From Candidatus Nanohaloarchaea archaeon (lineage in GTDB: Archaea; Nanohalarchaeota; Nanosalinia; Nanosalinales; Nanosalinaceae), in contig CP046106.1 of assembly GCA_013343275.1 (NCBI GenBank), positions 256,001 to 320,000 on the forward strand: 64,000 nucleotides of DNA, read 5' to 3'. The translations under genes and the position numbers were made by a program. The notes under the pieces were generated by a model. That model did no database searches, had not been told where the DNA came from, and worked only from the letters and a program-made list of their open reading frames with translations. Below, one piece after another: positions 6,616 through 60,416 of this stretch (the first letter of the stretch is position 1; each line of letters begins with the position of its first letter).

Positions 6616-9558
6616 TCAACACTTGCTCCAGCCACAGTCTGGGCATTTCTTGCATCCTTCTTGGAGGACTAGCATTCCTCCGCAGTCTGGGCATTCTGGG
6701 TTGCCGCCGTCGCTGACGATGCTTGCTGCGTCTCCTTTGTCGGCCTGTTCTTCTGTCTCTGTCTTTGGCTGAGTCTGCCCTTTCTGCTGTGTTTTCTGGG
6801 CCTGTGTGTCGAACTGATCGACCGTTTGCTGGCTGCCTTCGTGGTTTTCCAGGTGGCGTTTCATGGCCTCTGCGATTGCGTCTGGTACTGAGTGAATCTG
6901 TGTTCCCTGGTCCCATGCGATCTGCGGTGAGCGGATGTCGTCAAGCTGTTTGATGACGTCCTCTCCTGATGCACCGCTTCTCAAGGCCAGCGAGGTCATT
7001 CTTCCGAGGGCCTGTGTGAAGGATTGTGTGTATCCTCCGGATTTGCCCAAGTTGGCGAATACCTCGAAAGGCCCGTTGTTTTCGCTATTGTTGATTGTGA
7101 CGAACAGGTCGCCGTAGGCTGTTTCTATTTCCTGTGTTGTTCCCTGTGCGACTTTCGGCCTTTCCTTAATTCCTTTCTTCTCGTCGCCCATGTGTGTGGA
7201 CTGGCCTGTGTCCTGTGTGTCGGCCTCGATACCTTCCTGAGTGACTTCCTGTGAAAGGTCTTCTGTGTCTTCTTCCTGTACTTTGAGGCCTGTGTCGCCG
7301 ACTACTTCCTGGAACTCGTTGGACTGGAGTAGGTCTTCTGCGCCTCCGAATTCATCGATGATCTCTGAGAGCATGTCGACTTTGTCCATGTCGGTGAGCT
7401 GGTTTTCCTTGTTGGTCTGCATGACTTGTGTTTCTCTTGTTCCATCTCTGTAGACTGTCATGCCTTTGACTCCTTTGTCGTAGGCTCTCATGTAGGCCTC
7501 TCTGACATCGTCCTTAGTTGCTTCGTTAGGGAAGTTGCAGGTCTTGCTGATTCCGGAGTGGTTGTGTTTCTGGAATGCTGCCTGGATATCGATGTGCTCT
7601 TTTGGTGAGACCTGATCTGCTGTTGCGAAAATCTCTTTGACGTCGGCCGGCAGAACATCATCAGGAATGGATTCTACTCCTTCCCATTCATTGTTCTCCA
7701 TCTTCTCCTGTGCAGCTCTCTTGACCTCCTCTACGTCGACGTCGTTGGCTTCCAGGGCTTTGATGAAGTAGTCGTCGAACTCGACGAGCATGTCTTCTCC
7801 CTGGATGTCCTTTGCGACGTTCTTGAAGTAGGCCAGTGAGTAGATTGGCTCGCATCCTCCACTGGTGTTTCCGATCATGGAGGTGGTTCCGGTTGGTGCG
7901 ATGGTTACCGTGTTGTGGTTTCTCATCTTGAGGCCGTCCTCGAACTCTTCTGGGTCGAGGCCTCCGGTGTACTGTCTGAACCATTCTTCGTACTCGGTTG
8001 GGTTGGCCCATTTGGATTTCTCCCATTCCGGGAATTCTCCACGGATTTCTGCCAGTCTGTTGGATTCTTCTATTGAGAACCTTGTGATCAGTCGCTGGAT
8101 TTCTTCTGCTGCGGCTACTGATTCGTCTGATCCGTATCTGATTCCTAGCTGGATCATCATCTGTGCGAATCCCATAAGTCCGAGACCGACTTTTCTGAGG
8201 TCTGTTACTGTTTCTTCGATCTCTTCGAGTGGGAAGTCGGACATGGTTACTACGTTGTCGAGGAATCGTAGGCCTGTCTTGGCTACGTACTCGAACTCCT
8301 CCATGTCTACTGCTTGCTGGATGTACTCCTGCATTGCGGCCTGTAGATCGGCCTCGTTCTCGAAATCGTAACGATCCTGATTCTGTTCCTTCCATTCAGG
8401 GAAGGATAGAGCTGTTCCATCACCCTGATCGTCTACAAGGAGCGATAGATTGATGTGGCCGAGGTTACAGGCCTCATAGTTCTCAAGCGGCTGCTCACCG
8501 CAAGGATTTGTCGCTTCGATTCGATGTTCTGGGTGTTTTTCGGTGTCGAAGCTGTGCATGTCGTTAGCTTCGTCATACATGAAGAGGCCTGGTTCTCCGT
8601 TTCTCCATGCTCCGTCGATCAAGGTTTCCCAGATGAATCTTGCTGGGAGTTTCATTTCTTCTCCTGGCTCTAGATGGATGTCGAACTCCTCTATTTCGTC
8701 GCCAAAGCTTGATGCGTGATCTCTCCAGAAGTTTTCGTCCTTACCCTGGTCTGATCCTTCTGCTTCAGGGTACCATTCTTCGTCTCTGTTGTAGAACTGC
8801 GCTGTCTCCTTTGCTACCTCGAAAGGTTCTCCGGTTCTCGGATTGGTTAAGGTGTATTCTTCGTCGTTCTTGACAGCCTCCATGAACTCTTCCGTCAGGC
8901 CGACTGAGATGTTGAAGTTGGAGAGGTTGCCTTCTTTTCTCTTTGATGTTATGAATCTGAGGACGTCAGGGTGGTCGATCTTCATGATTCCCATCTGTGC
9001 TCCTCTTCTCTTGCCTCCCTGCTTGATCGTTCCGCACATTGTGTCGAAGACCTGCTGGAAGCTTAGAGGGCCGGATGCGATTCCTCCTGTTGAGGAGACG
9101 ATATCTCCTTTCGGTCTCATGAGGTGGAATGGGTATCCCATGCCGCCTCCGGACTGGAAGATCTTTGCAGCGTCGTGAACTTTGTTAAAAATACTATCCA
9201 TGTCGTCTTCTGGATGTACGACGAAACATGCGGATAACTGCTGTAGATCTGCTCCAGCGTTCATCAGTGTCGGACTGTTCGGCATGAATTTCTGATGTGT
9301 CATCAGGTCGTAGAACTCTTCCCATGAGTCCTCGAAGTCTACATCATCGTAGTTTTTGTCTGGTTGTGCGACGTTCTTCGCTACCCGTTCAAACATGTCT
9401 TCAGGAGCCTCTACTACCTCGCCATCTTCATCTTTCAGAAGGTATCTGGCTGGTAGAATTCTCTCATAAGCGTTCTCTGTTAATCGCTCTTCGACGGTTT
9501 CTCCTTTGACTCTTTTGACAGGTAACGTGAAGTCTGACTTCTGTTCTAGTTTTGCCAT
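6616..9558 (-). CDS. nrdJ: adenosylcobalamin-dependent (class II) ribonucleotide reductase with TSCPD-like domain and C-terminal Zn ribbon
   Basis: [54 protein letters not shown] and terminal CPDCG...[12 protein letters not shown]. Confidence 0.97.
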
Positions 9559-50647: not shown

Positions 50648-50968
50648 ATGGATACAGAAACAGTAATTTTCGGGAAATGGGACAACCACGGCAACAGCAA
50701 GAACCTCAGGCTTTCAGCACAGAACAGCCAGAAAGTAGACGAAGAAGTAGAACTGGTCTTCAAACACGGCAACAAACACGTACGCACAGTAGACGACATC
50801 GCCACACTCAAGAAAGTAATACAGTTCACAGCTAACCAGAAAGTAGAAGGCCTCACAATCGAAAAAGCCCACAAAGCAGTCAAACTATACAACAGCTACC
50901 ACAGAATAGACATGAACCCGGAAGAAGCCATCAAAGGCTGGAAACTAGCTGATAAGATAAAAGACTAG
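50648..50968 (+). CDS. small hypothetical protein
   Basis: 106 aa, A/C-skewed coding strand, basic, unlike host proteins. Confidence 0.6.
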   Translation: MDTETVIFGKWDNHGNSKNLRLSAQNSQKVDEEVELVFKHGNKHVRTVDDIATLKKVIQFTANQKVEGLTIEKAHKAVKLYNSYHRIDMNPEEAIKGWKLADKIKD

Positions 50969-52317
50969 ATAGAGATTTTCTCAGAAATCAAATCCTCAAT
51001 ACTATCCTCTAACTTGGAGGCCTCCACAATTCTGATAGGGCCGTTCTGCTCTTCCAAGTTCTGAGTATCTCTGCCTTCTTCAAAGTCCTGGACCACGAGA
51101 AGGCCTGATTTCTCTCCGCCGAATACTTCCGGCTTATTCAGGAACTCATCTTCATCCCTCAGGAACGCCAGATATTCCAGGGCCTCTTTGATGCCTCTCT
51201 TGATGGTTTTCTCGTTGGTGGAGTTCTTGACCTCTGCGATGAAGTACTCTCTGTCCTCTGAATCTTTATCGATAATTTCGACCAGTATGACATCAGGCCT
51301 TCCTGTGACTTCTCTTGTATCTTTGTCAAAGTAGTCACTGATGATTTCACGGGACTTTAACTCTACTTCTTCAGGCCTTGAGTAAGGTTCATCGCTGTCT
51401 TTTTCAGGATCGAATTTGAACTCTATATCGAGATCTCGGGCGGAGCTGTCGTGGTATACTGCAATCTCTTTTTCCTCGCTTTCCATTGTGGCGATTCTCT
51501 GTGATCCGCTCTCGATGGTTGCCAGGTTGAAGTCCTCGGATTCTATATTATCTATAGTAGATATGAACCTGAACAGGACGAAGAGTTCGAGAAGGGTTTC
51601 CTCATCATCCGGTGTTATAGCAGTGTCATTGAGTAGTTCTGTGAGTTCATCCTCGTTGCCGTCAAATATCCTGTTTCGCTTGTTCAGTAAGCCGGCCGCT
51701 TCCCTGTAGATCTGCTGCCGGGAATTTTCCGCAGTGTTAAGCATTCTATTGGTTGGTTCGTACTGTTCTGGTTTGCTGATTCTCTTCACGTGGACGTCTC
51801 GCTCGAAAATTCTTTCCATTTCCTCCACGAGATCTTCCTCTTCCTTCCATCTATCGTTCACCCAGGCATAATCCCTCTCAAAGTATTCACGGGCCTCCTG
51901 CAAAGTCTCGTAAATTACCGAGAGCAATCTCTTTAGAACAATATTTTCATCTATGTCGTAATGCTCTGTCCTGTTATCTGTAACAAAAAGAGAGTTATCG
52001 CCGGGATTCCCGGAGTACCTCTCCTTGATGGTTGAAGACCAGTTAATCCTGCCCTCAACCGTCCCTCTCCTGGTCTTGGAGACGTTTTCCGTCTGTGTCT
52101 TGATGCTGCGAATCCTTTCCGGAAGTCTCTGGACAAATTCGACAACCTCAGGTTTCAGGATAAAATGCAGATCCATGAGAAGCTCGTAATCCTCGAATCT
52201 CTCATCGAGGCCTTCATGTTTCAGATCTGCCGCTAACTGATCCTCCGGAAACTCTCCATGCATCACATAGGATACAATATCATCCGTCAGGCCGTCAATC
52301 AGTTCAGTTTTCTTCAT
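50965..52317 (-). CDS. mcrC: McrC-like PD-(D/E)XK nuclease subunit
   Basis: GRINWSSTI, YDIDENIVLK, GRPDVIL...IAEVK; overlaps the mcrB-like gene. Confidence 0.8.
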   Translation of the reverse strand: MKKTELIDGLTDDIVSYVMHGEFPEDQLAADLKHEGLDERFEDYELLMDLHFILKPEVVEFVQRLPERIRSIKTQTENVSKTRRGTVEGRINWSSTIKERYSGNPGDNSLFVTDNRTEHYDIDENIVLKRLLSVIYETLQEAREYFERDYAWVNDRWKEEEDLVEEMERIFERDVHVKRISKPEQYEPTNRMLNTAENSRQQIYREAAGLLNKRNRIFDGNEDELTELLNDTAITPDDEETLLELFVLFRFISTIDNIESEDFNLATIESGSQRIATMESEEKEIAVYHDSSARDLDIEFKFDPEKDSDEPYSRPEEVELKSREIISDYFDKDTREVTGRPDVILVEIIDKDSEDREYFIAEVKNSTNEKTIKRGIKEALEYLAFLRDEDEFLNKPEVFGGEKSGLLVVQDFEEGRDTQNLEEQNGPIRIVEASKLEDSIEDLISEKISI

Positions 52318-54802
52318 CGAACTTTACCTGCAGCATGTCTCGAGCGACATTTCTCAACCTCGTCTCCTCAACGTGTTCGGATTTGGCAATCTCCTTCACG
52401 ATATCTCCATTATTCCTGACTCCCTCCAGCTGCGGGAATACAAAGTTCAACACTGCTTCTGTGCCAGAGGAGCCTTGAGCAACAAAGCTGAGCATATCCT
52501 CTGCGATTGCCGGGCCAATCTTTCTACCTTCAACTGCATTGTTGGTTCTCTCCCAGATATCGGCGACAGTATCAATATCCTCTCCATCTGCATTAATTTC
52601 CCATTTTTCATCGTAGCTGCGAAGTAGCTCATTATCGATATCTTCCGGAGCTTCTACACGAATAAAGGCAAATCTTCTCATGAAGGCATAACTCATCTCG
52701 TAGAGGGAAGTTTTGTCGTACGAGTTCATCGTCGCCAGAATCTTCCAGGACTCGGGAACAACGTACTGATTTTCATCAGGCCGCTCTGAAGCATCTTCAT
52801 GCTTACCTGGAATAACCTCGATCTCCTCACCGTTATCAGCTGTGTAAGGCAGCTGGACCTTCTGACCGGAAAGAACCGTGAAAAGCTGTCCAAAGGCCTT
52901 GTCGATATCTGAACGATTGATCTCATCAACCACAAGCAACTCGTTTTTCAGAGCTCTCTCATCATCCTTGAACCTCTTCAGAATCTGACCAGAGTTAAAC
53001 TCGAGATCGCCATCACCTTCCTTCTCAGGCATAAAACCTCCAACAGTATCAAAAGTCGACCAGTCAGCAGTAGCAGTAGTCAACTGATGACCTGTGAAGA
53101 AATCCGTACCCTCTAGTTCCTCGGCAACAGCCTCGGCAATCTCGGTCTTGCCTGTGCCCGGAGGCCCTGTAAAGATAATATGCTTACCCGAGTTAAGCGC
53201 AGCCTCAACCTGCGAAACAATACTCTCTCCCTGCCCATCAGGATAGTAAAGGCCTCTCTCCTCGAGAATGTTTTCTGGGAGATCGATGTCAAGCTTATCT
53301 TCTATCTCAATATCAGTGCTGTGAATCCTGTCAGCGCTCTTACCACTGATAGCTTTAATCTGAGAATCATCTTCTGAACTGTAATCCAGGAAATCTGTCT
53401 CAGGACTTGCAGGCCCTGTCTTTTTCTCCTGCAGGAATTTTCTGACGCTGCCATACCTGTCTCTGATGCTACTAATCCCCTGATCATTCAGGGACTGGAA
53501 ACCCATGAGATTGTAGTTATCGGAGTAGTCTGCCAGATCATTGATTTCGTCCTGTGACAGATCCATCTTGAACGGTTCCTTCAGGTAGATAATATACTTC
53601 CACGGATCACCGTCATCGTCTGGCCATAGCTCTTTTGCAAGTTCAGTATTTGTCTCAGTATCAATAATTTCAGCACCGTAGATGTACTCTCCCTGCCTGT
53701 AGAAGAGCAGGAAATCTCCTGCTTCAATCTTCTTCCAGCTGGACTTGGTTCCCTCACGGTTACCCCATACAGAAACCACGTCATGATCAAAACTCCGATC
53801 AGAGGACTCATTAACCTTTTCAGTCGGAACACGCCGTATAACAGTATCTCTCAAATGTGCGTATGCATCATCATTGCTGCATGGAGCAAGGAAAAGCTGA
53901 GGTTCGTCTTTTTCTGAATAATTTACCTCGTTTTTCACGGAATCACCTGCATTATCTAGAAATAGACTTGATATCTCAGCTATATCTCTTTCCAGCTCGT
54001 CCTCATCCATAGAGCCTGCCTGATATTCTTTGTAATAAACTGTCGCAGGACCGTATTTTTCACCTATTCCACTAGCATCTAATTTGATTGGACCAGGCTT
54101 GAAATCCTCGAGATCATATTTTTCTCTTAACTCTGCACCTTTTTCTTTGAGATCAGAATTATTTCTATTTCCCTGAGCATTTTCTCTTTTGACTCTCTGA
54201 TTTAGAGTGAGATATACTTTATCCTCTTGAGGATCAATTAGAAAAACTGGATTTGTGCCATGTTCTAGGGTCTCGCCATCTCTATTTCTTATACTGATCC
54301 ATGGTATACTCGACCAATTACCTTGACCAGCCGACCCTTCAGTTTCAACGTCGAAACTATTGTAATCAGATGAAACTCTGTTAGCGATATGTTTTAGTAG
54401 TGCAGGACCTTTTTCCTCTATAAGTTTGTAAACTTCTTTCTCGCTATTTAATTTTCCTAAATCTTGGACATCATATTTACTAAGGATTTCTTCTAAGGTG
54501 TCTACGAAAAGCGATGTTGAATAATCTCGTACGTTAAAAAGCTGTATATCCAGATTTTTCAGAAATCTCTCAGCGTCATTTGTCGTGAAATCGCTTTTGG
54601 AGAAGCCTTCACTCTCTATCTTCTCAATATTCTCGAAAACGTCCTTTACAGGTTTCCTTTCTCCATTTAATTCGATGTAATGCCATGGAGAATAATTATA
54701 TTCACTAAATTCGGCCTTGGTTTCGTTAAAAGCATTTTCGACATCTTCAACTGTTATCGTTAACTCGACACCATTAATAGAGCTAGTAAACTCATCCGCC
54801 AT
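52304..54802 (-). CDS. mcrB: McrB-like AAA+ NTPase with three N-terminal reader domains
   Basis: GPPGTGKT, VVDEINR, MNSYD signature, AFMRRF; DUF3578-like GSAGQGNW..PWI; EVE-like WG...GD.LLFY. Confidence 0.88.
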   Translation of the reverse strand: MADEFTSSINGVELTITVEDVENAFNETKAEFSEYNYSPWHYIELNGERKPVKDVFENIEKIESEGFSKSDFTTNDAERFLKNLDIQLFNVRDYSTSLFVDTLEEILSKYDVQDLGKLNSEKEVYKLIEEKGPALLKHIANRVSSDYNSFDVETEGSAGQGNWSSIPWISIRNRDGETLEHGTNPVFLIDPQEDKVYLTLNQRVKRENAQGNRNNSDLKEKGAELREKYDLEDFKPGPIKLDASGIGEKYGPATVYYKEYQAGSMDEDELERDIAEISSLFLDNAGDSVKNEVNYSEKDEPQLFLAPCSNDDAYAHLRDTVIRRVPTEKVNESSDRSFDHDVVSVWGNREGTKSSWKKIEAGDFLLFYRQGEYIYGAEIIDTETNTELAKELWPDDDGDPWKYIIYLKEPFKMDLSQDEINDLADYSDNYNLMGFQSLNDQGISSIRDRYGSVRKFLQEKKTGPASPETDFLDYSSEDDSQIKAISGKSADRIHSTDIEIEDKLDIDLPENILEERGLYYPDGQGESIVSQVEAALNSGKHIIFTGPPGTGKTEIAEAVAEELEGTDFFTGHQLTTATADWSTFDTVGGFMPEKEGDGDLEFNSGQILKRFKDDERALKNELLVVDEINRSDIDKAFGQLFTVLSGQKVQLPYTADNGEEIEVIPGKHEDASERPDENQYVVPESWKILATMNSYDKTSLYEMSYAFMRRFAFIRVEAPEDIDNELLRSYDEKWEINADGEDIDTVADIWERTNNAVEGRKIGPAIAEDMLSFVAQGSSGTEAVLNFVFPQLEGVRNNGDIVKEIAKSEHVEETRLRNVARDMLQVKFDEEN

Positions 54803-54844: not shown

Positions 54845-55201
54845 TTAGGATCTCCATTCCTCAAGGCCTTCAGTTATTTCCTCTGCTGTTTCTTCATCAA
54901 ATCTTTCCCTGTTTTCGTCCAGCTTCTCCAGAACTGCCTCTTCAATATCTATGTCCAGTCGCTGGGCCATGCTCAGGGAGTACAGGATTACATCTGCCAG
55001 CTCCTCTCTAACTCCAGCCATTAATTCCTCGTCCTGTTTGATTTTCTTGACAGGTACATTGTCTTTCCACTGGAAGTGCTCCATCAGTTCTGAGGCCTCT
55101 ATGGAAATCGACATGGCGATGTTCTTCGGTTCATGGAACTTCTCCCAGTCACGTTTCTCCTTGAACTCTGCGTATTCCTCCTGAAGTCTGTCAATTCCCA
55201 T
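54845..55201 (-). CDS. MazG-like nucleotide pyrophosphohydrolase (dCTPase type)
   Basis: RDWEKFH.PKN...EASELME.FQW, EELADV. Confidence 0.93.
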   Translation of the reverse strand: MGIDRLQEEYAEFKEKRDWEKFHEPKNIAMSISIEASELMEHFQWKDNVPVKKIKQDEELMAGVREELADVILYSLSMAQRLDIDIEEAVLEKLDENRERFDEETAEEITEGLEEWRS

Positions 55202-55351: not shown

Positions 55352-56152
55352 TTATGAGAATCTGTCGATGCTTTTCTGCTTTTTAGGGAGCTTGTCTCCC
55401 TTTACGAATCTGTATGCTCTTTCCAGCCAGTAGAGATCTTCTGAAAACTCAAGGTTATCTTCTTTTCTTTGCAGATATTTCACTCTGACACTGAAGGATA
55501 GATATGGCATCAGCATTCCCTGGCTGGGGTTTATCTGCAGCATGACCTCGATATCTACAGGATATCCAGAATGTCTATCTGAATAGTCTAGTTTCAGAAG
55601 TTGTTGTTCTACATCGTAGTTTTTGTCAATGTCTTCTCTTATGTTCTCCATCACACTCGAGTAGGATAGCTTGTCAATCTCTACAGAGCCATTGTTTTTG
55701 TTGTCCTGTAGGCGGACAATTTGCGTTTGTATTCCTTGTTCTTCTGCAAGTTCTTCTCTGTTTGATAGTTTATTCTCTGAGAATCGGAATATGTCATAGT
55801 CGAAAGGTGTTTCATCTTCAAACAGTTCTGTGAATAAGTCTTGGACGGATTTTATTTTGAAAGTTCTATCTCTGGCTATTAGTATTACATTATCCTCAGG
55901 CACTGGCTTGAATAGAAATGTGCTCTTAGTCTTTCTTTCCGTCTCTGAGTCTTCATCTACTCCTAGCATTCTGTTGTATCGTGAAGTTGGTCTAGTTGTT
56001 TTCTTTATCCATGTTAGCGTGAAGCAGTCGTCTTCTTTCTCATTCAAATAGAAGTTATCCTCTTTTTCTTCTGCCTCTCTCTTTATTGAGGACAGCATAC
56101 TATCTATTTCTTCAGTCTTTACTGGAACGGAGTATACATTCAAGCGTTTCAT
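55352..56152 (-). CDS. hypothetical protein with C-terminal PIP-box-like motif
   Basis: 266 aa, AT-rich, ends QKSIDRFS, ATGA-coupled to the upstream gene. Confidence 0.7.
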   Translation of the reverse strand: MKRLNVYSVPVKTEEIDSMLSSIKREAEEKEDNFYLNEKEDDCFTLTWIKKTTRPTSRYNRMLGVDEDSETERKTKSTFLFKPVPEDNVILIARDRTFKIKSVQDLFTELFEDETPFDYDIFRFSENKLSNREELAEEQGIQTQIVRLQDNKNNGSVEIDKLSYSSVMENIREDIDKNYDVEQQLLKLDYSDRHSGYPVDIEVMLQINPSQGMLMPYLSFSVRVKYLQRKEDNLEFSEDLYWLERAYRFVKGDKLPKKQKSIDRFS

Positions 56153-57090
56153 TGGGTTGAGAACAAGTATGATTCTACTAACAGTTTTTGGAACGGATTT
56201 TGTAGCCTGTATTTCACTTTTCTGCCCTCTTGTTTTTTACTTATCAGTTCTAAATCTCTTAATTTTGATAAATGTGTCGAGACTGTAGATCTTTTGAGCT
56301 CACTATTGTAGGTAGAATTAATCATTTCTGATATAGTTGGCGCATCAAAGCTTGTTACTCTGTATCTACCAAAATTATTCCTCCACCCTGATGTTAACAC
56401 TTCTAAGATGTTTTCTCTGGTTTCAGATACCTCATCTAAGTCTACTAGGTTATATTCCTTGAAAAATTCTTCTGGCGTATAAATTGATTCCTTTATGATT
56501 TTCTTCAACAGCGGATTATAGTAAAAATGTTTATCTTCCAAGGTTTTTGGCGAGCTAATTACCTCTTCGGCATATTTTTCTAAGTAGAATTGGTGCCCAA
56601 ATTTCAGTCCTAAAAATTCCGAGTAATTCCAGGACTGTAGAATTTTATTTTCCTTGCCGGAGAAATTTTCTATGAGATCTAATACCTTGGTTAGTTCCTC
56701 TTTCCTGAGCAATGAGCAATTCATAATTACGAAGAAGTCGAATTCCTCTTCTCTTTCGAGAATGTTTTCTGGATAGATGATGAAATCTGAGTCTTTAGGC
56801 AAGTTATCGCTACCCTCTTCATTGCGTTTAATTAGTTTCAAGTCGATAAATCCTGCTTTCTCGCCTTCAAGCGCTTCAGAGATTGCTTTATTTTTTCCAA
56901 AACCTTCTGGAGCTGTTATGATGCTCTTTCTGCCACTTTCCAGAGAAGCAATCATCTTTTTTCTGAAAAGCTCTATTTCTTCCTCGTGAAAGTCAGCAGT
57001 GTAGCTATTGTCATAGAATTTCTCCGCATTTTGAGGCACACCATCACTGATCTTGGTATCCAATGCCTCGTAGTCTGTACCGGGTGGCAT
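56149..57090 (-). CDS. degenerate P-loop domain fused to a winged-HTH (putative regulator)
   Basis: SIITAPEGFGKN Walker-A-like; RSTVSTHLSKLRDLELISKKQEGRKVKYRL ArsR-type wHTH. Confidence 0.7.
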   Translation of the reverse strand: MPPGTDYEALDTKISDGVPQNAEKFYDNSYTADFHEEEIELFRKKMIASLESGRKSIITAPEGFGKNKAISEALEGEKAGFIDLKLIKRNEEGSDNLPKDSDFIIYPENILEREEEFDFFVIMNCSLLRKEELTKVLDLIENFSGKENKILQSWNYSEFLGLKFGHQFYLEKYAEEVISSPKTLEDKHFYYNPLLKKIIKESIYTPEEFFKEYNLVDLDEVSETRENILEVLTSGWRNNFGRYRVTSFDAPTISEMINSTYNSELKRSTVSTHLSKLRDLELISKKQEGRKVKYRLQNPFQKLLVESYLFSTQ

Positions 57091-57125
57091 CTGAAATTAA
57101 TTTATCCCCTCTAGTTTAAAATCTT

Positions 57126-57161
57126 TTAGTCAGATTAGCCAACTTAGTCAGATAAATCTGA
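57126..57161. promoter_or_regulatory. candidate operator in the divergent promoter
   Basis: TTAGTCAGAT direct repeat (57126 and 57144) and palindrome TCAGAT-AA-ATCTGA (57148-57161). Confidence 0.55.
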
Positions 57162-57218
57162 TTTCCAAAAAGTTTTTAAATAGAAAGGAGTAGTTAGTTG
57201 GTAGGGGCGGAGGAGAAG

Positions 57219-58043
57219 ATGAAATCACGAGACAAAAAAGTTGAAGGAGTTGTCCGTAGAGTACAACCTCAAACTAAGCATGAGGAGTTCATGAGGCACG
57301 GAAACAATCAAGATACAGTCATGATGAAGATTCCTGATGTTGAAACTTTATTGAATGCTAGAGGTCAAACCAGAAAGAGGTATTTCCCTGGTAAATATAC
57401 TGTGATAAGCAGCGGCATAATCAACGATGAGGATCTATCAAAGCTGAGATGGACTCGAGAACTTCTAGCTGTGAAATGTTTCGGCCCTGAGTACCATATT
57501 CCGATAGATTATCCATACTATGGAGACATGCCTGAGAAGGAGAGAAAAGCTAATCTTCGAAAGATGATGAGCGGCGCCAAGTGGATGGCACAACAACTTA
57601 GTAATACAGAAACGGAAATCATCCCTCTGATTAAAGGATACTCCCCTGAAGAGCGTTCGATCTGCTATGAAGCTATTCGTAAAATCAAACCAGAGTACTG
57701 TGCAATATATGGTTCTCAGTACTTCGGGGGTTCGATGGGTAATGGCATCAATAAGCTAAACCGGCACATTAGAGAGATTATATCAGAAGTAGGTATAGAA
57801 AACATCTTACTTATCGGTCCACAGTACAAGAATGGCGTGGAAAAACTCCCTCCAGAAGTGAAAGCGACTGCCGGCCAAAGAAGCTGGATAAAAAAGTCAA
57901 AATTAAGGGAAGTTCCGATTCCTGTAGCTCACAGCAGGTATCTAGACTGGAGGTCTGAAATAGAATCAGCTTTAGGTCAAGGACAGGCAACGATAAAATC
58001 AGCAATTAGACAGAGTAGCAAGGTGGCCGCCCCTGGGAGCTAG
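57219..58043 (+). CDS. TGT-like TIM-barrel protein (Cap10-like CBASS ancillary candidate)
   Basis: IPIDYP, IIPLIKG and ILLIG echo the TGT strands (xxLDxP, xxPVxQG, xHxLG); ATG follows GGAGGAG; first gene of the CD-NTase operon. Confidence 0.55.
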   Translation: MKSRDKKVEGVVRRVQPQTKHEEFMRHGNNQDTVMMKIPDVETLLNARGQTRKRYFPGKYTVISSGIINDEDLSKLRWTRELLAVKCFGPEYHIPIDYPYYGDMPEKERKANLRKMMSGAKWMAQQLSNTETEIIPLIKGYSPEERSICYEAIRKIKPEYCAIYGSQYFGGSMGNGINKLNRHIREIISEVGIENILLIGPQYKNGVEKLPPEVKATAGQRSWIKKSKLREVPIPVAHSRYLDWRSEIESALGQGQATIKSAIRQSSKVAAPGS

Positions 58044-58065
58044 AAGCAGTGAACCTGATGATAAT

Positions 58066-59103
58066 GTGAGACCTAGTAGTGGAGGTAGGCCTCCAGTTGA
58101 TCAGTCACAAACTAGTGTACCAGATCACCAGGATGAAGAAAGAGAACTGGACGAGTCGCATCGCGACTACACAGAAGACGCACAGATTACAGATAGGCAG
58201 AAAAAGGAAATGCATGAAAGACGTGAAAGAGTGGTACAGCATCTTAAGGAAGGAGGCCTACAGATTGAAGATGATCATATTTTTGGTTCTGTAATGCAAG
58301 GGACTATGACAGGACCTCTAGATCAAGATTCTGATGTTGATGTGATGATCGTTCTTGACGCAGATGAACATCGAGAATGGGCTGAAAGCGAAAACGGTCC
58401 TAGAAATGCTTTGAAAGCTGTAAAGAGGCGTCTTGAAAAGAAATATCCTAATCAAGAAGTAAATGTAGACAGAAATGTTGTGGCTGTGAAGTTCAGCGAT
58501 TTTACTGTAGAAGTAGCTCCAGCATTCAGGTATAGTGATGTTCGTGATCCAGAGCATCCATCAGATCCTGTAACGTTGGGAGGTATGGAATTTCCTGCGA
58601 GACCAATAGATGCTGATGATCCTGAGAAAGATGGTTATGTCATTCCCGATACCTATGGAGAAACTAAATGGACGGGGACAAACCCCAGGAAATTTCAGAG
58701 TATGTATAATGCTGTTAATAGAAACCACGGCGGCGATTTACAGAGAGTTGCAGTAGCAGCAAAGAAAGTTAACGAGCAGAACGGCAACCACATCAGCTCC
58801 TACCACGCAGTAATGATGGCTTACAAGTATTTCGAAAAAGATGCTCCTCCCAATGCATCAACGCAGCAGCATATGAACAATTTCTTTAGGAATCTACCCC
58901 GTTATTTGGATGAAGAAACACGAGAACCAGTATATCAGGAAAGACTGGATAAGGGTTTAGATGAAGAGGAGAGAAGAAAAGCGATAAAGATGGCTTACCA
59001 AAAGAGCAGTAAAATTGAAGAAGCTGAGCGATTACAGAAGGAAGGTAAATATGAGAAGGCAAAAGAAAAGTATGAAGAGGTCTATGGAAATGAATTCAAC
59101 TAG
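58066..59103 (+). CDS. CD-NTase (cGAS/DncV-like, SMODS) nucleotidyltransferase
   Basis: FGS...GT...SDVDV, VEVAPAF, YVIPD, W..TNP, ISSY; possible upstream CTG start at 58033. Confidence 0.9.
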   Translation: MRPSSGGRPPVDQSQTSVPDHQDEERELDESHRDYTEDAQITDRQKKEMHERRERVVQHLKEGGLQIEDDHIFGSVMQGTMTGPLDQDSDVDVMIVLDADEHREWAESENGPRNALKAVKRRLEKKYPNQEVNVDRNVVAVKFSDFTVEVAPAFRYSDVRDPEHPSDPVTLGGMEFPARPIDADDPEKDGYVIPDTYGETKWTGTNPRKFQSMYNAVNRNHGGDLQRVAVAAKKVNEQNGNHISSYHAVMMAYKYFEKDAPPNASTQQHMNNFFRNLPRYLDEETREPVYQERLDKGLDEEERRKAIKMAYQKSSKIEEAERLQKEGKYEKAKEKYEEVYGNEFN

Positions 59104-59105
59104 AG

Positions 59106-59687
59106 GTGTTCTTAGTGTCAGAAGATGATTTTGATTACGAAGCTCATGAAAGACTTCGTGAAAGAGTTGCGAATAAAGCTGATAGTGCACTATGGGCTTA
59201 CAAATCACATTACGAAGCAGCTGATTGGTACAGCAGTTTTAGTAAGAAAATTAGCTGGATTACTACAGCTACAGCTGGAATACTAACTGTATCTCTTATT
59301 TGGAGGGTTCTTCCAGACTATGCGCTAGTGCTCTTAGCTATTGCAACAGCTGCACTATCAGGCTACAAAACAGCAGCAAAACCTGAGAAAAAATCCTACG
59401 AACACTACAATGCTGGAGATGCCTATCATCGGCTCTTTATTGACTTCAATGATTTCACCAAATTACAATTAGCAGATGAAAGTTATGGCCTCGAGAACAT
59501 GAAAGAGAGATTTTGGGAATTATCTGATCGCCATCAGAACCTAAACGAAGAAATGCCGAATATTGCAAGCAAATGGTACGAAAGACTTCATGAAGAAGAG
59601 ATAAGATCACAGACACAAACAACTGAAGAAACTAAAAAAGCTTTAACAGGCTGTGCTCGGCTGAAAAATACTGAGGATCAAAAGTGA
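59106..59687 (+). CDS. SLATT-domain 2-TM effector
   Basis: YKSHYEAA..Y, two TMs, P.....EH..AG..Y; directly after the CD-NTase; likely start GTG at 59115. Confidence 0.85.
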   Translation: MFLVSEDDFDYEAHERLRERVANKADSALWAYKSHYEAADWYSSFSKKISWITTATAGILTVSLIWRVLPDYALVLLAIATAALSGYKTAAKPEKKSYEHYNAGDAYHRLFIDFNDFTKLQLADESYGLENMKERFWELSDRHQNLNEEMPNIASKWYERLHEEEIRSQTQTTEETKKALTGCARLKNTEDQK

Positions 59688-59852: not shown

Positions 59853-60416
59853 ATGATTCCTTTTGAGGAGGAGGCCTCTCTTAATGAGACTGAGGAGTAT
59901 GTGGAGAGGCTTCTTCAGGCCCGGTGGGATAATGTGGTTCGTTCGACTCCTGGTGTGAAGAGTGATTTAGAGGGCCGTTTTCCGGAGCTGTCGGAGACTA
60001 TCAGCAGAAGGATCAGGGAGGATTCGGGTGGCGAGTTTTCGAATGTTTTCCGGCCTGGTGTGCCTGATTTCCTGGTTTTTGATGACAGCGGAGAGTATCT
60101 CTTTGTCGAGGTTAAGTCGAGCGATGACGGCCTGAGGAGTACGCAGTTGCGCTGGCTGCGGGATTTCCAGGGTGTTAACATGGAGATCTGGTTCGCTGAC
60201 AGCAAAGATATCGAGAAGCTGGATGCGGATGATTTCGGTTCCTACGGTTTCAGCGATGTAAAGAAGAATAATTCAAGCTACGAGTTAGAGGAGAGAAACA
60301 GTAATCTGTGGGCCCAGATTCCTGATGAGCTAGCCGCAATACTCGGCCTCGATGAAGAGAGCAGTGTTGAGTGGCGTTTGAAGAGCGGTGATGAGTTGAT
60401 ACTGGATAACAGGTAA
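59853..60416 (+). CDS. VRR-NUC domain nuclease with AbrB-like tail
   Basis: PGVPDFL, FVEVKS..D.L...Q..W. Confidence 0.85.
   Translation: MIPFEEEASLNETEEYVERLLQARWDNVVRSTPGVKSDLEGRFPELSETISRRIREDSGGEFSNVFRPGVPDFLVFDDSGEYLFVEVKSSDDGLRSTQLRWLRDFQGVNMEIWFADSKDIEKLDADDFGSYGFSDVKKNNSSYELEERNSNLWAQIPDELAAILGLDEESSVEWRLKSGDELILDNR

Follow-up and report, generated by a model that had tools for sequence, protein, structure and literature searches.

Can a cyclic oligonucleotide-based antiphage signalling system (CBASS) of type IV layout work without the enzyme that modifies its cyclase? The question is raised by a three-gene operon at positions 57219-59687 of a 64,000-nucleotide stretch of DNA from Candidatus Nanohaloarchaea archaeon, called the window below. 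The operon encodes a protein resembling tRNA-guanine transglycosylase (TGT), a cGAS/DncV-like nucleotidyltransferase (CD-NTase) and a SLATT membrane effector. The window comprises bases 256001-320000 of a genome consisting of a single contig of 915,886 bp (0.92 Mb), rated 96.5% complete.

In the Rhizobiales type IV CBASS (Wassarman et al. 2025), Cap9 ligates 7-amido-7-deazaguanine to Gly2 of the CD-NTase CdnD, Cap10 binds the modified tail, and the loss of either Cap9 or Cap10 abolishes defence; deletion of Cap9 weakens the Cap10-CdnD complex (bioRxiv 10.1101/2025.04.06.647259). The type IV CD-NTase tail begins with M(G/S)G(G/S)GG, in which Gly2 is the conjugation site, and the NDG adduct adds 176 Da. 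Cap10 contains the essential catalytic residues D248 and H226 and reads the base with D73, S74, D122 and K154, and the authors state that all 49 operons, which include archaeal ones, conserve the conjugation features (bioRxiv 10.1101/2025.04.06.647259). According to a review that cites Millman et al. 2020, type IV clusters occur in several euryarchaea (PMC10249747).

The locus in the window is held here, with moderate confidence, to be an intact, horizontally mobile, Cap9-independent type IV-like CBASS, in which the cyclase tail is bound by a receptor without being modified. The Cap9-independent type IV-like lineage is common in haloarchaea. Deazaguanylation of the cyclase N-terminus by Cap9 is, in the published model, both essential and conserved across the type; the archaeal lineage keeps the TGT-like partner and the glycine tail and has no Cap9. 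The role of Cap10 and the purpose of the modification therefore become separable questions, unlike in the bacterial system, and genetically tractable haloarchaeal hosts carry the lineage.

The operon and the mobile cassette

The window contains three open reading frames (ORFs) on the same strand, at 57198/57219-58043 (+), 58066-59103 (+) and 59106-59687 (+). Together with their family matches they agree with the TGT-like, CD-NTase and SLATT operon that had been proposed from the sequence alone. The features of the operon are as follows.

57219..58043, + strand: Cap10-like protein, 274 aa, a TIM barrel of the TGT superfamily without the Zn subdomain (PADLOC TGT)
58021..58026, + strand: Shine-Dalgarno-like AGGTGG, near the end of the Cap10-like gene and within it; the CTG at 58033-58035 follows after 6 nt
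58033..59103, + strand: CD-NTase, 356 codons from CTG 58033 (SMODS, NF041117), with catalytic G85-S86, D101, D103 and D156 present
59106..59687, + strand: SLATT two-transmembrane effector, 193 aa (PADLOC 2TM PDLC00712, 4.2e-16; NCBIfam SLATT_4)

The cyclase is the sole SMODS match in the genome (PF18144, 6e-19). It also matches the PADLOC cyclase model PDLC00805 (1.3e-106) and NCBIfam NF041117, CBASS_cyclase_b, with 220.6 bits against a cut-off of 200; a phmmer search of the PDB with the CD-NTase returned coiled-coil-like designed repeats only. The SLATT protein scores 69.4 bits against NCBIfam SLATT_4 (cut-off 55) and 25.3 bits against Pfam SLATT_4, slightly under the cut-off of 27. Two hydrophobic stretches are visible by eye in its translation, which is 87% identical to the copy in a related locus, L061.

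The operon does not move alone. The segment 55352-59673 is 89% identical in DNA to positions 6134-10455 of L061 over 4,338 bp, and the flanks are unrelated. The likeness stops exactly at 55352 and 59673, which defines the mobile unit as five genes: the operon and a divergent pair upstream of it. The three genes are thus present as had been claimed, but the unit is a 5-gene, 4.3-kb cassette. Its G+C content is 39.8%, against 46.6% for the window as a whole, and the window profile falls to 0.39-0.42 across 54-60 kb. The cassette is also intact in both L061 and a further locus, L062. Its intactness in the window is supported by this sharing with L061 and by the retention of every family-conserved residue in both the barrel and the cyclase.

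The Cap10-like barrel

The Cap10-like gene likely starts at ATG 57219, behind GGAGGAG. Its ORF matches the PADLOC TGT model PDLC00912 with an E-value of 3.1e-75 over model positions 16-272 of 280; no Pfam family is matched at E up to 0.1 (hence no PF01702), and no NCBIfam family. The AF2 model, with a pLDDT of 82.7, is an eight-stranded barrel. In a Foldseek search its best PDB matches are those of Zymomonas mobilis TGT (E about 1e-6, TMq 0.62-0.65), which agrees with the TGT-like character assigned earlier; generic barrels such as PdxJ (TMq 0.60) are nearly as good. There is no Cap10 entry among the top 50 PDB rows, which are crowded with TGT mutants. Look-alikes in the ESM Atlas include a TGT PF01702 cluster with a TM score of 0.75, DUF4417 with 0.74 and DpdA with 0.84 by features. 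On these models, the protein at 57219-58043, here named Cap10-like, is a barrel of the TGT superfamily that resembles TGT at the level of the fold only. It had been called very divergent, which is correct relative to the classical TGT and incorrect relative to the PADLOC TGT family, of which it is an ordinary member.

Conservation was counted over 145 members of the barrel family. The residues D70, E81, D97, Y101, P136, K139, G140, Y164, G200, P211, G219 and W223 are conserved in at least 94% of them; individual values are 99% for D70, 94% for D97, K139 and G219, 97% for Y164, 83% for Q167 and 98% for G200. The protein of the window keeps D70, E81, D97, Y101, K139, Y164, Y168, G200, G219 and W223. 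In the model most of the conserved residues lie at the C-terminal ends of the strands, the usual site of the pocket in such barrels. The order D70...D97...K139 recalls the base-reading residues D73, D122 and K154 of Cap10, a residue mapping that is a lead made without superposition. Past residue 145 no Asp or His is conserved in 80% or more of the members, and in Cap10 H226 and D248 lie in the last third of the protein. The family has one invariant Cys (C149) and the protein is about 100 residues shorter than TGT, which together indicate that the Zn subdomain is missing. An hhalign comparison of the family with five haloarchaeal archaeosine TGTs gave a probability of 0.8% and serves as a lead only.

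A viral protein, Q2XUY8, was matched in the BFVD database by Foldseek (E 1.7e-18, TMq 0.78, 23% identity), far above any TGT of the PDB. Viral relatives of the barrel were found neither by tblastn against GenBank phages nor by a scan of IMG/VR.

The probable CTG start and the glycine tail

The cyclase frame has a stop at 57994-57996 and then no ATG, GTG or TTG until the GTG at 58066. The sequence-only reading had pointed to an in-frame CTG at 58033, 6 nt past AGGTGG, that would give the N-terminus (M)GARSS. This codon is indeed in frame with GTG 58066, and the CTG frame reads ...PPLGARSSEPDDNVRPSSGG. Relatives have ATG or TTG, followed by GGN, at the corresponding position; this codon overlaps or abuts the stop of the Cap10-like gene and is preceded at the same spacing by a GAGGTG element. 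L061 and L062 (82% identical) have TTG-GGG at this codon behind GAGGTGG and the same 6-nt spacer. P0001 (92% identical) ends in APGS as the window does, so that its overlapping codon cannot be ATG.

Comparison of the cyclases argues for the same start. Gly2 is invariant in 33 of the 33 aligned rows (alignment A2), and a start downstream of the CTG would lose the family-invariant T53, Q56 and R63, which favours CTG 58033. In contigs of the runs X1 and X4, about 92-93% identical to the window, the change 58068 G>A turns GTG 58066 into GTA, and the other changes listed for these contigs produce, taken together, no net shift of the CTG frame. Translation would hence begin at CTG 58033 and produce a Met-Gly N-terminus; the conserved Shine-Dalgarno element would couple this codon to the end of the Cap10-like gene, and the mature cyclase would start with glycine. 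If so, a CTG start in a protein whose second residue matters would be a small case of near-cognate initiation in a DPANN-like archaeon.

The window tail is (CTG)-G-A-R-S-S and has no run of glycines; some relatives begin with MGGGY, and others with MGNTR or MGTDI. The long N-terminal extension and the Pro/Asp-rich insert that had been described are both visible in A2. The insert is at full length in the 15-row clade of the window, shorter in 10 rows and absent in 8. In a tree of all 33 rows, with an arbitrary root, the window pairs with L061 (support 100/100) inside this 15-row clade of haloarchaeal and hypersaline metagenome sequences (100/100).

The CTG can also be taken as a mark of decay: the start would have been lost from ATG through TTG to CTG, little or no cyclase would be produced, and the operon would have ceased to defend. 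This is quite unlikely. It would account for the CTG, where every relative with an intact partner and a readable junction has ATG or TTG, and broken copies do occur elsewhere (a split cyclase in the duplicate rows L006 and L042; stops within the matches in genomes G153, G437, G295 and G072). Against decay, none of the three ORFs of the window is truncated or lacks a family-invariant residue, the Shine-Dalgarno element stands at its usual spacing, and L061 and L062 share the intact cassette. The contigs of the relatives of about 92% identity cover the whole operon, yet do not keep the downstream GTG. A weak start may, moreover, have been selected to hold the cyclase below the level of its partner and inhibitor.

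Distribution and partner genes

The barrel family is represented by 191 clusters (50% identity) at E up to 1e-3 and by 131 at E up to 1e-30 among 1.84 billion proteins. The PADLOC TGT model finds it in 2 of 70 genomes of the window's phylum and in 60 of 401 sampled Halobacteria, the class of Halobaculum. The arrangement had been thought notable in an archaeon with a reduced genome; it is widespread in Halobacteria and not special to this archaeon. Haloarchaeal scores reach 463 bits, which shows that the PADLOC model is essentially built on the archaeal barrel family. Because this family is Cap9-less, a 'type IV' call in an archaeon may not imply the published mechanism. A tblastn search matched 13 plasmid records, all of them haloarchaeal and labelled 'hypothetical protein'.

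The linkage of the barrel to its downstream gene was examined in 37 locus rows, which represent 34 distinct loci after removal of duplicates (L039 = L004, L037 = L005, L042 = L006). In 30 of the 34, the next gene starts between -14 and +3 nt from the stop of the Cap10-like gene, and its product begins with MG (28 loci), MMG (1) or MKMG (1); the four loci without such a start are the window, the broken L006, L034 and L046. According to BLAST with the enzyme of the window, the partner is a CD-NTase in 25 distinct loci (27 rows). Among 15 metagenome loci 12 junctions are readable, and in all 12 a start codon (10 ATG, 2 TTG) is followed by GGN. Beyond the three genes, none is common to all loci, and the upstream neighbours are of at least three unrelated types.

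These counts bear on the simplest alternative, a plain type I CBASS consisting of cyclase and SLATT effector alone, with the barrel as an unrelated neighbour. The barrel does lack a Pfam or NCBIfam family, and PdxJ-like TIM barrels almost equal TGT in Foldseek. Nevertheless, the stop and start overlap or abut in the 30 of 34 distinct loci, across many genera, and in the 12 metagenome junctions; genes of the barrel family are also found ahead of TIR genes whose products have the same MGGG tail; and the predicted complex described below passes its controls. The plain type I reading is extremely improbable and is already refuted by the synteny. The outcome that had been named in advance as leaving only type I, an upstream protein neither TGT-like nor linked to CD-NTases elsewhere, did not arise: the linkage recurs at 25 further distinct loci.

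The partner is not always a cyclase. In L010 it is a TIR protein (ThsB_TIR, 9e-13), and the partner in L047 is similar in look. In L008, L044 and L045 the partners are very acidic proteins that start with MGGGD or MGGRF; the one in L008 has no Pfam family. Judged by these sequences, the tail cassette seems to serve partners besides CD-NTase or TIR.

Two of these loci have further features. At 7579-9523 of L010, from genome G052 of the window's phylum, the Cap10-like gene is followed by a TIR gene whose product starts with MGGGRNSTG and then by an 8xMP membrane protein. At 9147-11424 of L008, two tandem Cap10-like paralogues precede the acidic protein.

Absence of Cap9 and of the deazaguanine pathway

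Neither QueC nor a glycosylase had been seen in the window, and the wider searches bear this out for the window and find no significant queC match in the whole genome. There, Pfam QueC PF06508 and the PADLOC QueC (Cap9) model gave one PP-loop match of 16-17 bits at about 36.6 kb; it lies 220 kb from the locus, in a 652-aa GATase / Asn-synthase / diphthamide-synthase-like protein. No match to PADLOC OGG, Pfam TGT PF01702 or QueD (PTPS) was found in the whole genome, with models that in known control genomes matched 2 of 14 (OGG), 14 of 14 (TGT) and 10 of 14 (QueD). The genome, from a phylum whose genomes are roughly 1 Mb, thus gives no sign of 7-deazaguanine metabolism. A genome without QueC, QueD and TGT would most likely not make the 7-amido-7-deazaguanine modification.

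To extend the search, a QueC hidden Markov model (HMM) was built from four haloarchaeal QueCs and run on the window and 55 loci, 3,558 ORFs in all. That it would recognise Cap9 is an assumption, made because Cap9 is reported to conserve QueC motifs (PMC13329287). The model found nothing among the ORFs of the window; over the entire set it recovered one of its seeds, the QueC of L048, together with two fragments in L049, and nothing else. Within the window's phylum, Pfam QueC finds a match (E up to 1e-5) in 15 of 70 genomes, in two of them a strong one (191.7 and 196.4 bits) and in 13 one of at most 28 bits; at this threshold there is no match in the window's genome or in G052. Of the 60 haloarchaeal genomes with the barrel family, 50 have a QueC match somewhere and 10 have none. 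Comparison of positions places QueC within 10 kb of the barrel gene in 2 of the 60 only (G086 and G346).

Candidates for Cap9 or its substitute were considered and rejected. The QueC of G086, about 2.5-3.7 kb from the best-scoring haloarchaeal operon, belongs to a housekeeping Vut_1-queD-queE-queC cluster. The QueC of G346, close to a weak member of the family, consists of two C-terminal fragments among unrelated genes. An upstream neighbour as a stand-in for Cap9 was dismissed because no gene is common there and the neighbours are of unrelated types.

The G086 locus (L048, 4853-12220) holds the only QueC of its genome, with a Schlafen AlbA_2 gene between the queC cluster and the operon; the operon may lie near queDEC by chance or for a functional reason. 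Short ORFs (218-247 aa) that are QueC-like and match the PADLOC Cap9 model at nearly full length also occur in genomes that hold the barrel family, at G385:C11:1461700-1462269 (about 30 kb off), G467:C1:388234-388803 (about 200 kb off) and G422:C69:16370-16915 (on another contig).

The tail could still be modified, with a nucleobase or otherwise, by an enzyme unlike QueC; candidates would be the Cap10-like barrel, a product of the cassette such as its 266-aa protein, or a housekeeping enzyme. The Cap10-like protein would then read the modified N-terminus. Several features recommend this alternative. The pocket residues D70, D97, K139, Y164, Q167, G200 and G219 are kept in at least 83% of the 145 members, the first three in an order that recalls Cap10; Gly2 is invariant; and the Rhizobiales system loses defence when Cap9 is deleted (bioRxiv 10.1101/2025.04.06.647259). 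It is opposed by the lack of a fourth gene common to all loci, with the upstream neighbours so diverse, by the lack of an Asp or His conserved at 80% or more beyond residue 145, where Cap10 has H226 and D248, and by the lack of an evident 7-deazaguanine source in a genome without QueC, QueD and TGT. Modification by such an enzyme is considered unlikely, though it deserves weight.

The predicted complex and a proposed mechanism

A two-chain model paired the Cap10-like protein (alignment A1) with the cyclase, taken from Gly2 onwards (alignment A2). Its median ipSAE is 0.66, the best of three controls reaching 0.00; 58 of 80 solved complexes and 2 of 110 mismatched pairs come up to that mark. The runs share at least 75% of their contacts, and the partner has a pLDDT of 82 or more. 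The predicted interface is formed by the C-terminal helices of the cyclase (286-333) and tail residues 19 and 21-22 on one side, and by helices 42-54 and 73-89 of the Cap10-like protein on the other. The model supports binding of the CD-NTase by the Cap10-like barrel. The solved complex is a 2:2 assembly in which the tail extends to the opposite Cap10 protomer, a contact that a 1:1 model cannot display.

The following mechanism can be proposed. The Cap10-like barrel would bind the CD-NTase through its C-terminal helices and through the N-terminal tail, which would begin with a free glycine, and this binding would keep the cyclase silent until infection. The pocket of the barrel would read the unmodified tail or another ligand. 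Upon infection the released or activated cyclase would make a cyclic nucleotide, which would open the SLATT membrane effector, and the infection would be aborted. Sensing of a viral 7-deazaguanine, or a like ligand, by the barrel had been suggested from the sequence alone and is speculation.

A number of observations weigh against this reading, in which the tail receptor is intact and independent of Cap9. Deletion of Cap9 abolishes defence in Rhizobiales, so that a system without Cap9 contradicts the only experimental model. The order D70/D97/K139 hints, by analogy with D73/D122/K154 of Cap10, that a guanine-like base may still be bound, and the residue mapping to TGT depends on the hhalign alignment of 0.8% probability. 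A profile of the barrel family (A1, 21 members) run against PDB sequences at E up to 10 gave seven chance matches (E 0.11-1.2), none of them TGT or Cap10, although the set includes 9ntn and 9nto (with a chain named CdnD); the failure to match any PDB chain leaves orthology with the bacterial Cap10 unproven by sequence. The end of the glycine tail is not confidently placed in the complex model. Since a like complex has already been solved (9ntn, with a chain named CdnD), the good score of the model may in part reflect this likeness. CTG is a poor start codon, and its use at 58033 is suggested by comparison; among the best-supported differences listed (there are 325 more), a C at 58033 in the X1 and X4 contigs is unproven. 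Finally, L061 has at 8797-8814 an in-frame ATG 15 nt upstream of TTG-GGG, inside the Shine-Dalgarno-like stretch, and its use would give a cyclase without the N-terminal glycine.

Relation to known defence systems

The locus resembles type IV CBASS in that a TGT-fold partner adjoins a clade-D-like CD-NTase with an N-terminal extension predicted to begin Met-Gly, and a 2TM/SLATT effector follows. The predicted contact through the C-terminal helices of the cyclase is comparable to the helix clamp of the solved Cap10-CdnD complex. It differs in several respects: Cap9 is absent from both the locus and the genome, and so is Cap11; the tail GARSS lacks a (G/S)G(G/S)GG run and the start codon is CTG; the barrel family appears to have no conserved Asp/His pair where Cap10 has D248 and H226; and the cyclase is nearer to PDB 6p82 (7e-23) than to the CdnD of 9ntn (7e-8). 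Of the components that define type IV, a CD-NTase and an adjacent TGT-like protein are present, the latter of unproven orthology with the solved Cap10, and Cap9 is missing. The locus is type IV-like in its layout but, for want of Cap9, is not a strict member of the type. No description of Cap9-less type IV-like systems was found in the literature searched, which leaves out Millman et al. 2020 and the supplementary tables of Wassarman et al.; both may bear on the point.

The Cap10-like protein shares the (beta/alpha)8 barrel with the TGT/DpdA/DUF4417 superfamily. Unlike TGT, it has Lys instead of Gln opposite the 'VQG' motif, in a low-confidence hhalign pairing, and its family lacks a conserved nucleophile Asp. 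It does not belong to PF01702, having neither a Pfam match nor the Zn-binding C-terminal subdomain.

A preprint reports Thoeris operons that carry cap9, cap10 and cap11 (bioRxiv 10.64898/2025.12.03.692087). L010 is like them in that the same tail and partner cassette serves a TIR, and it is unlike them in that the published operons carry cap9, whereas L010 and its genome G052 have no QueC match. In type II CBASS (Cap2/Cap3 acting on the C-terminus of the CD-NTase) and QatABCD (QatC acting on the N-terminus of QatB), an ancillary protein likewise engages a terminal tail. The folds and the chemistry are different, and there is no E1/E2-like or QueC-like enzyme at the locus.

A broader proposal, possible rather than probable, is that the barrel together with the Met-Gly tail makes up an old control cassette that is portable and works without deazaguanylation. 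As a pseudo-enzyme, the barrel would act as the receptor of an unmodified glycine tail or of a small guanine-like ligand that competes with it, archaea would have plugged the cassette onto CD-NTases, TIRs and other proteins, and the bacterial type IV system with Cap9 and NDG would be an elaboration of it.

The divergent pair and the surroundings of the cassette

The remaining part of the shared cassette lies upstream of the operon and contains two genes on the opposite strand and an intergenic region with repeats.

56149..57090, - strand: 313-aa protein with a C-terminal ArsR-type winged helix, divergent to the operon, within the shared cassette
55352..56152, - strand: 266-aa protein, overlapping the 313-aa gene by 4 nt, within the shared cassette
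57126-57135 and 57144-57153, no strand assigned: two exact copies of TTAGTCAGAT with 18-nt spacing, in the divergent intergenic region

The 313-aa protein matches HTH_5 of Pfam (2e-4), PADLOC Csa3 (2.2e-8, residues 165-305) and, under the cut-off, NCBIfam HTH_metalloreg (8e-9); it is 92.7% identical to the L061 copy. It is probably the regulator. The 266-aa protein, 98.9% identical to its copy in L061, matches no Pfam, PADLOC or NCBIfam family and has no BLAST likeness to the proteins of about 245 aa of the L005/L048 type. In the Atlas it has unnamed look-alikes only, the weak structural leads being the GAPS4b_N and DUF4747 clusters. The two genes could act as a pair of regulators or make up a small defence module of their own. 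The divergent intergenic region (57115-57180) also contains a 13-nt inverted repeat with arms at 57115-57127 and 57168-57180. The TTAGTCAGAT pair would be candidate operator sites and, together with the inverted repeat, candidate operator/promoter elements.

The cassette lies among further genes of the defence type. A McrB-like protein (MrcB_N + AAA_5) is encoded at 52304-54802, and its gene is overlapped by that of a 450-aa partner without a family (50965-52317). The cassette region is flanked by the genes of a MazG-like protein (54845-55201) and, on the other side, of a VRR-NUC nuclease (59853-60416). The sequencing runs that hold parts of the cassette carry hypersaline lake or brine metagenome labels.

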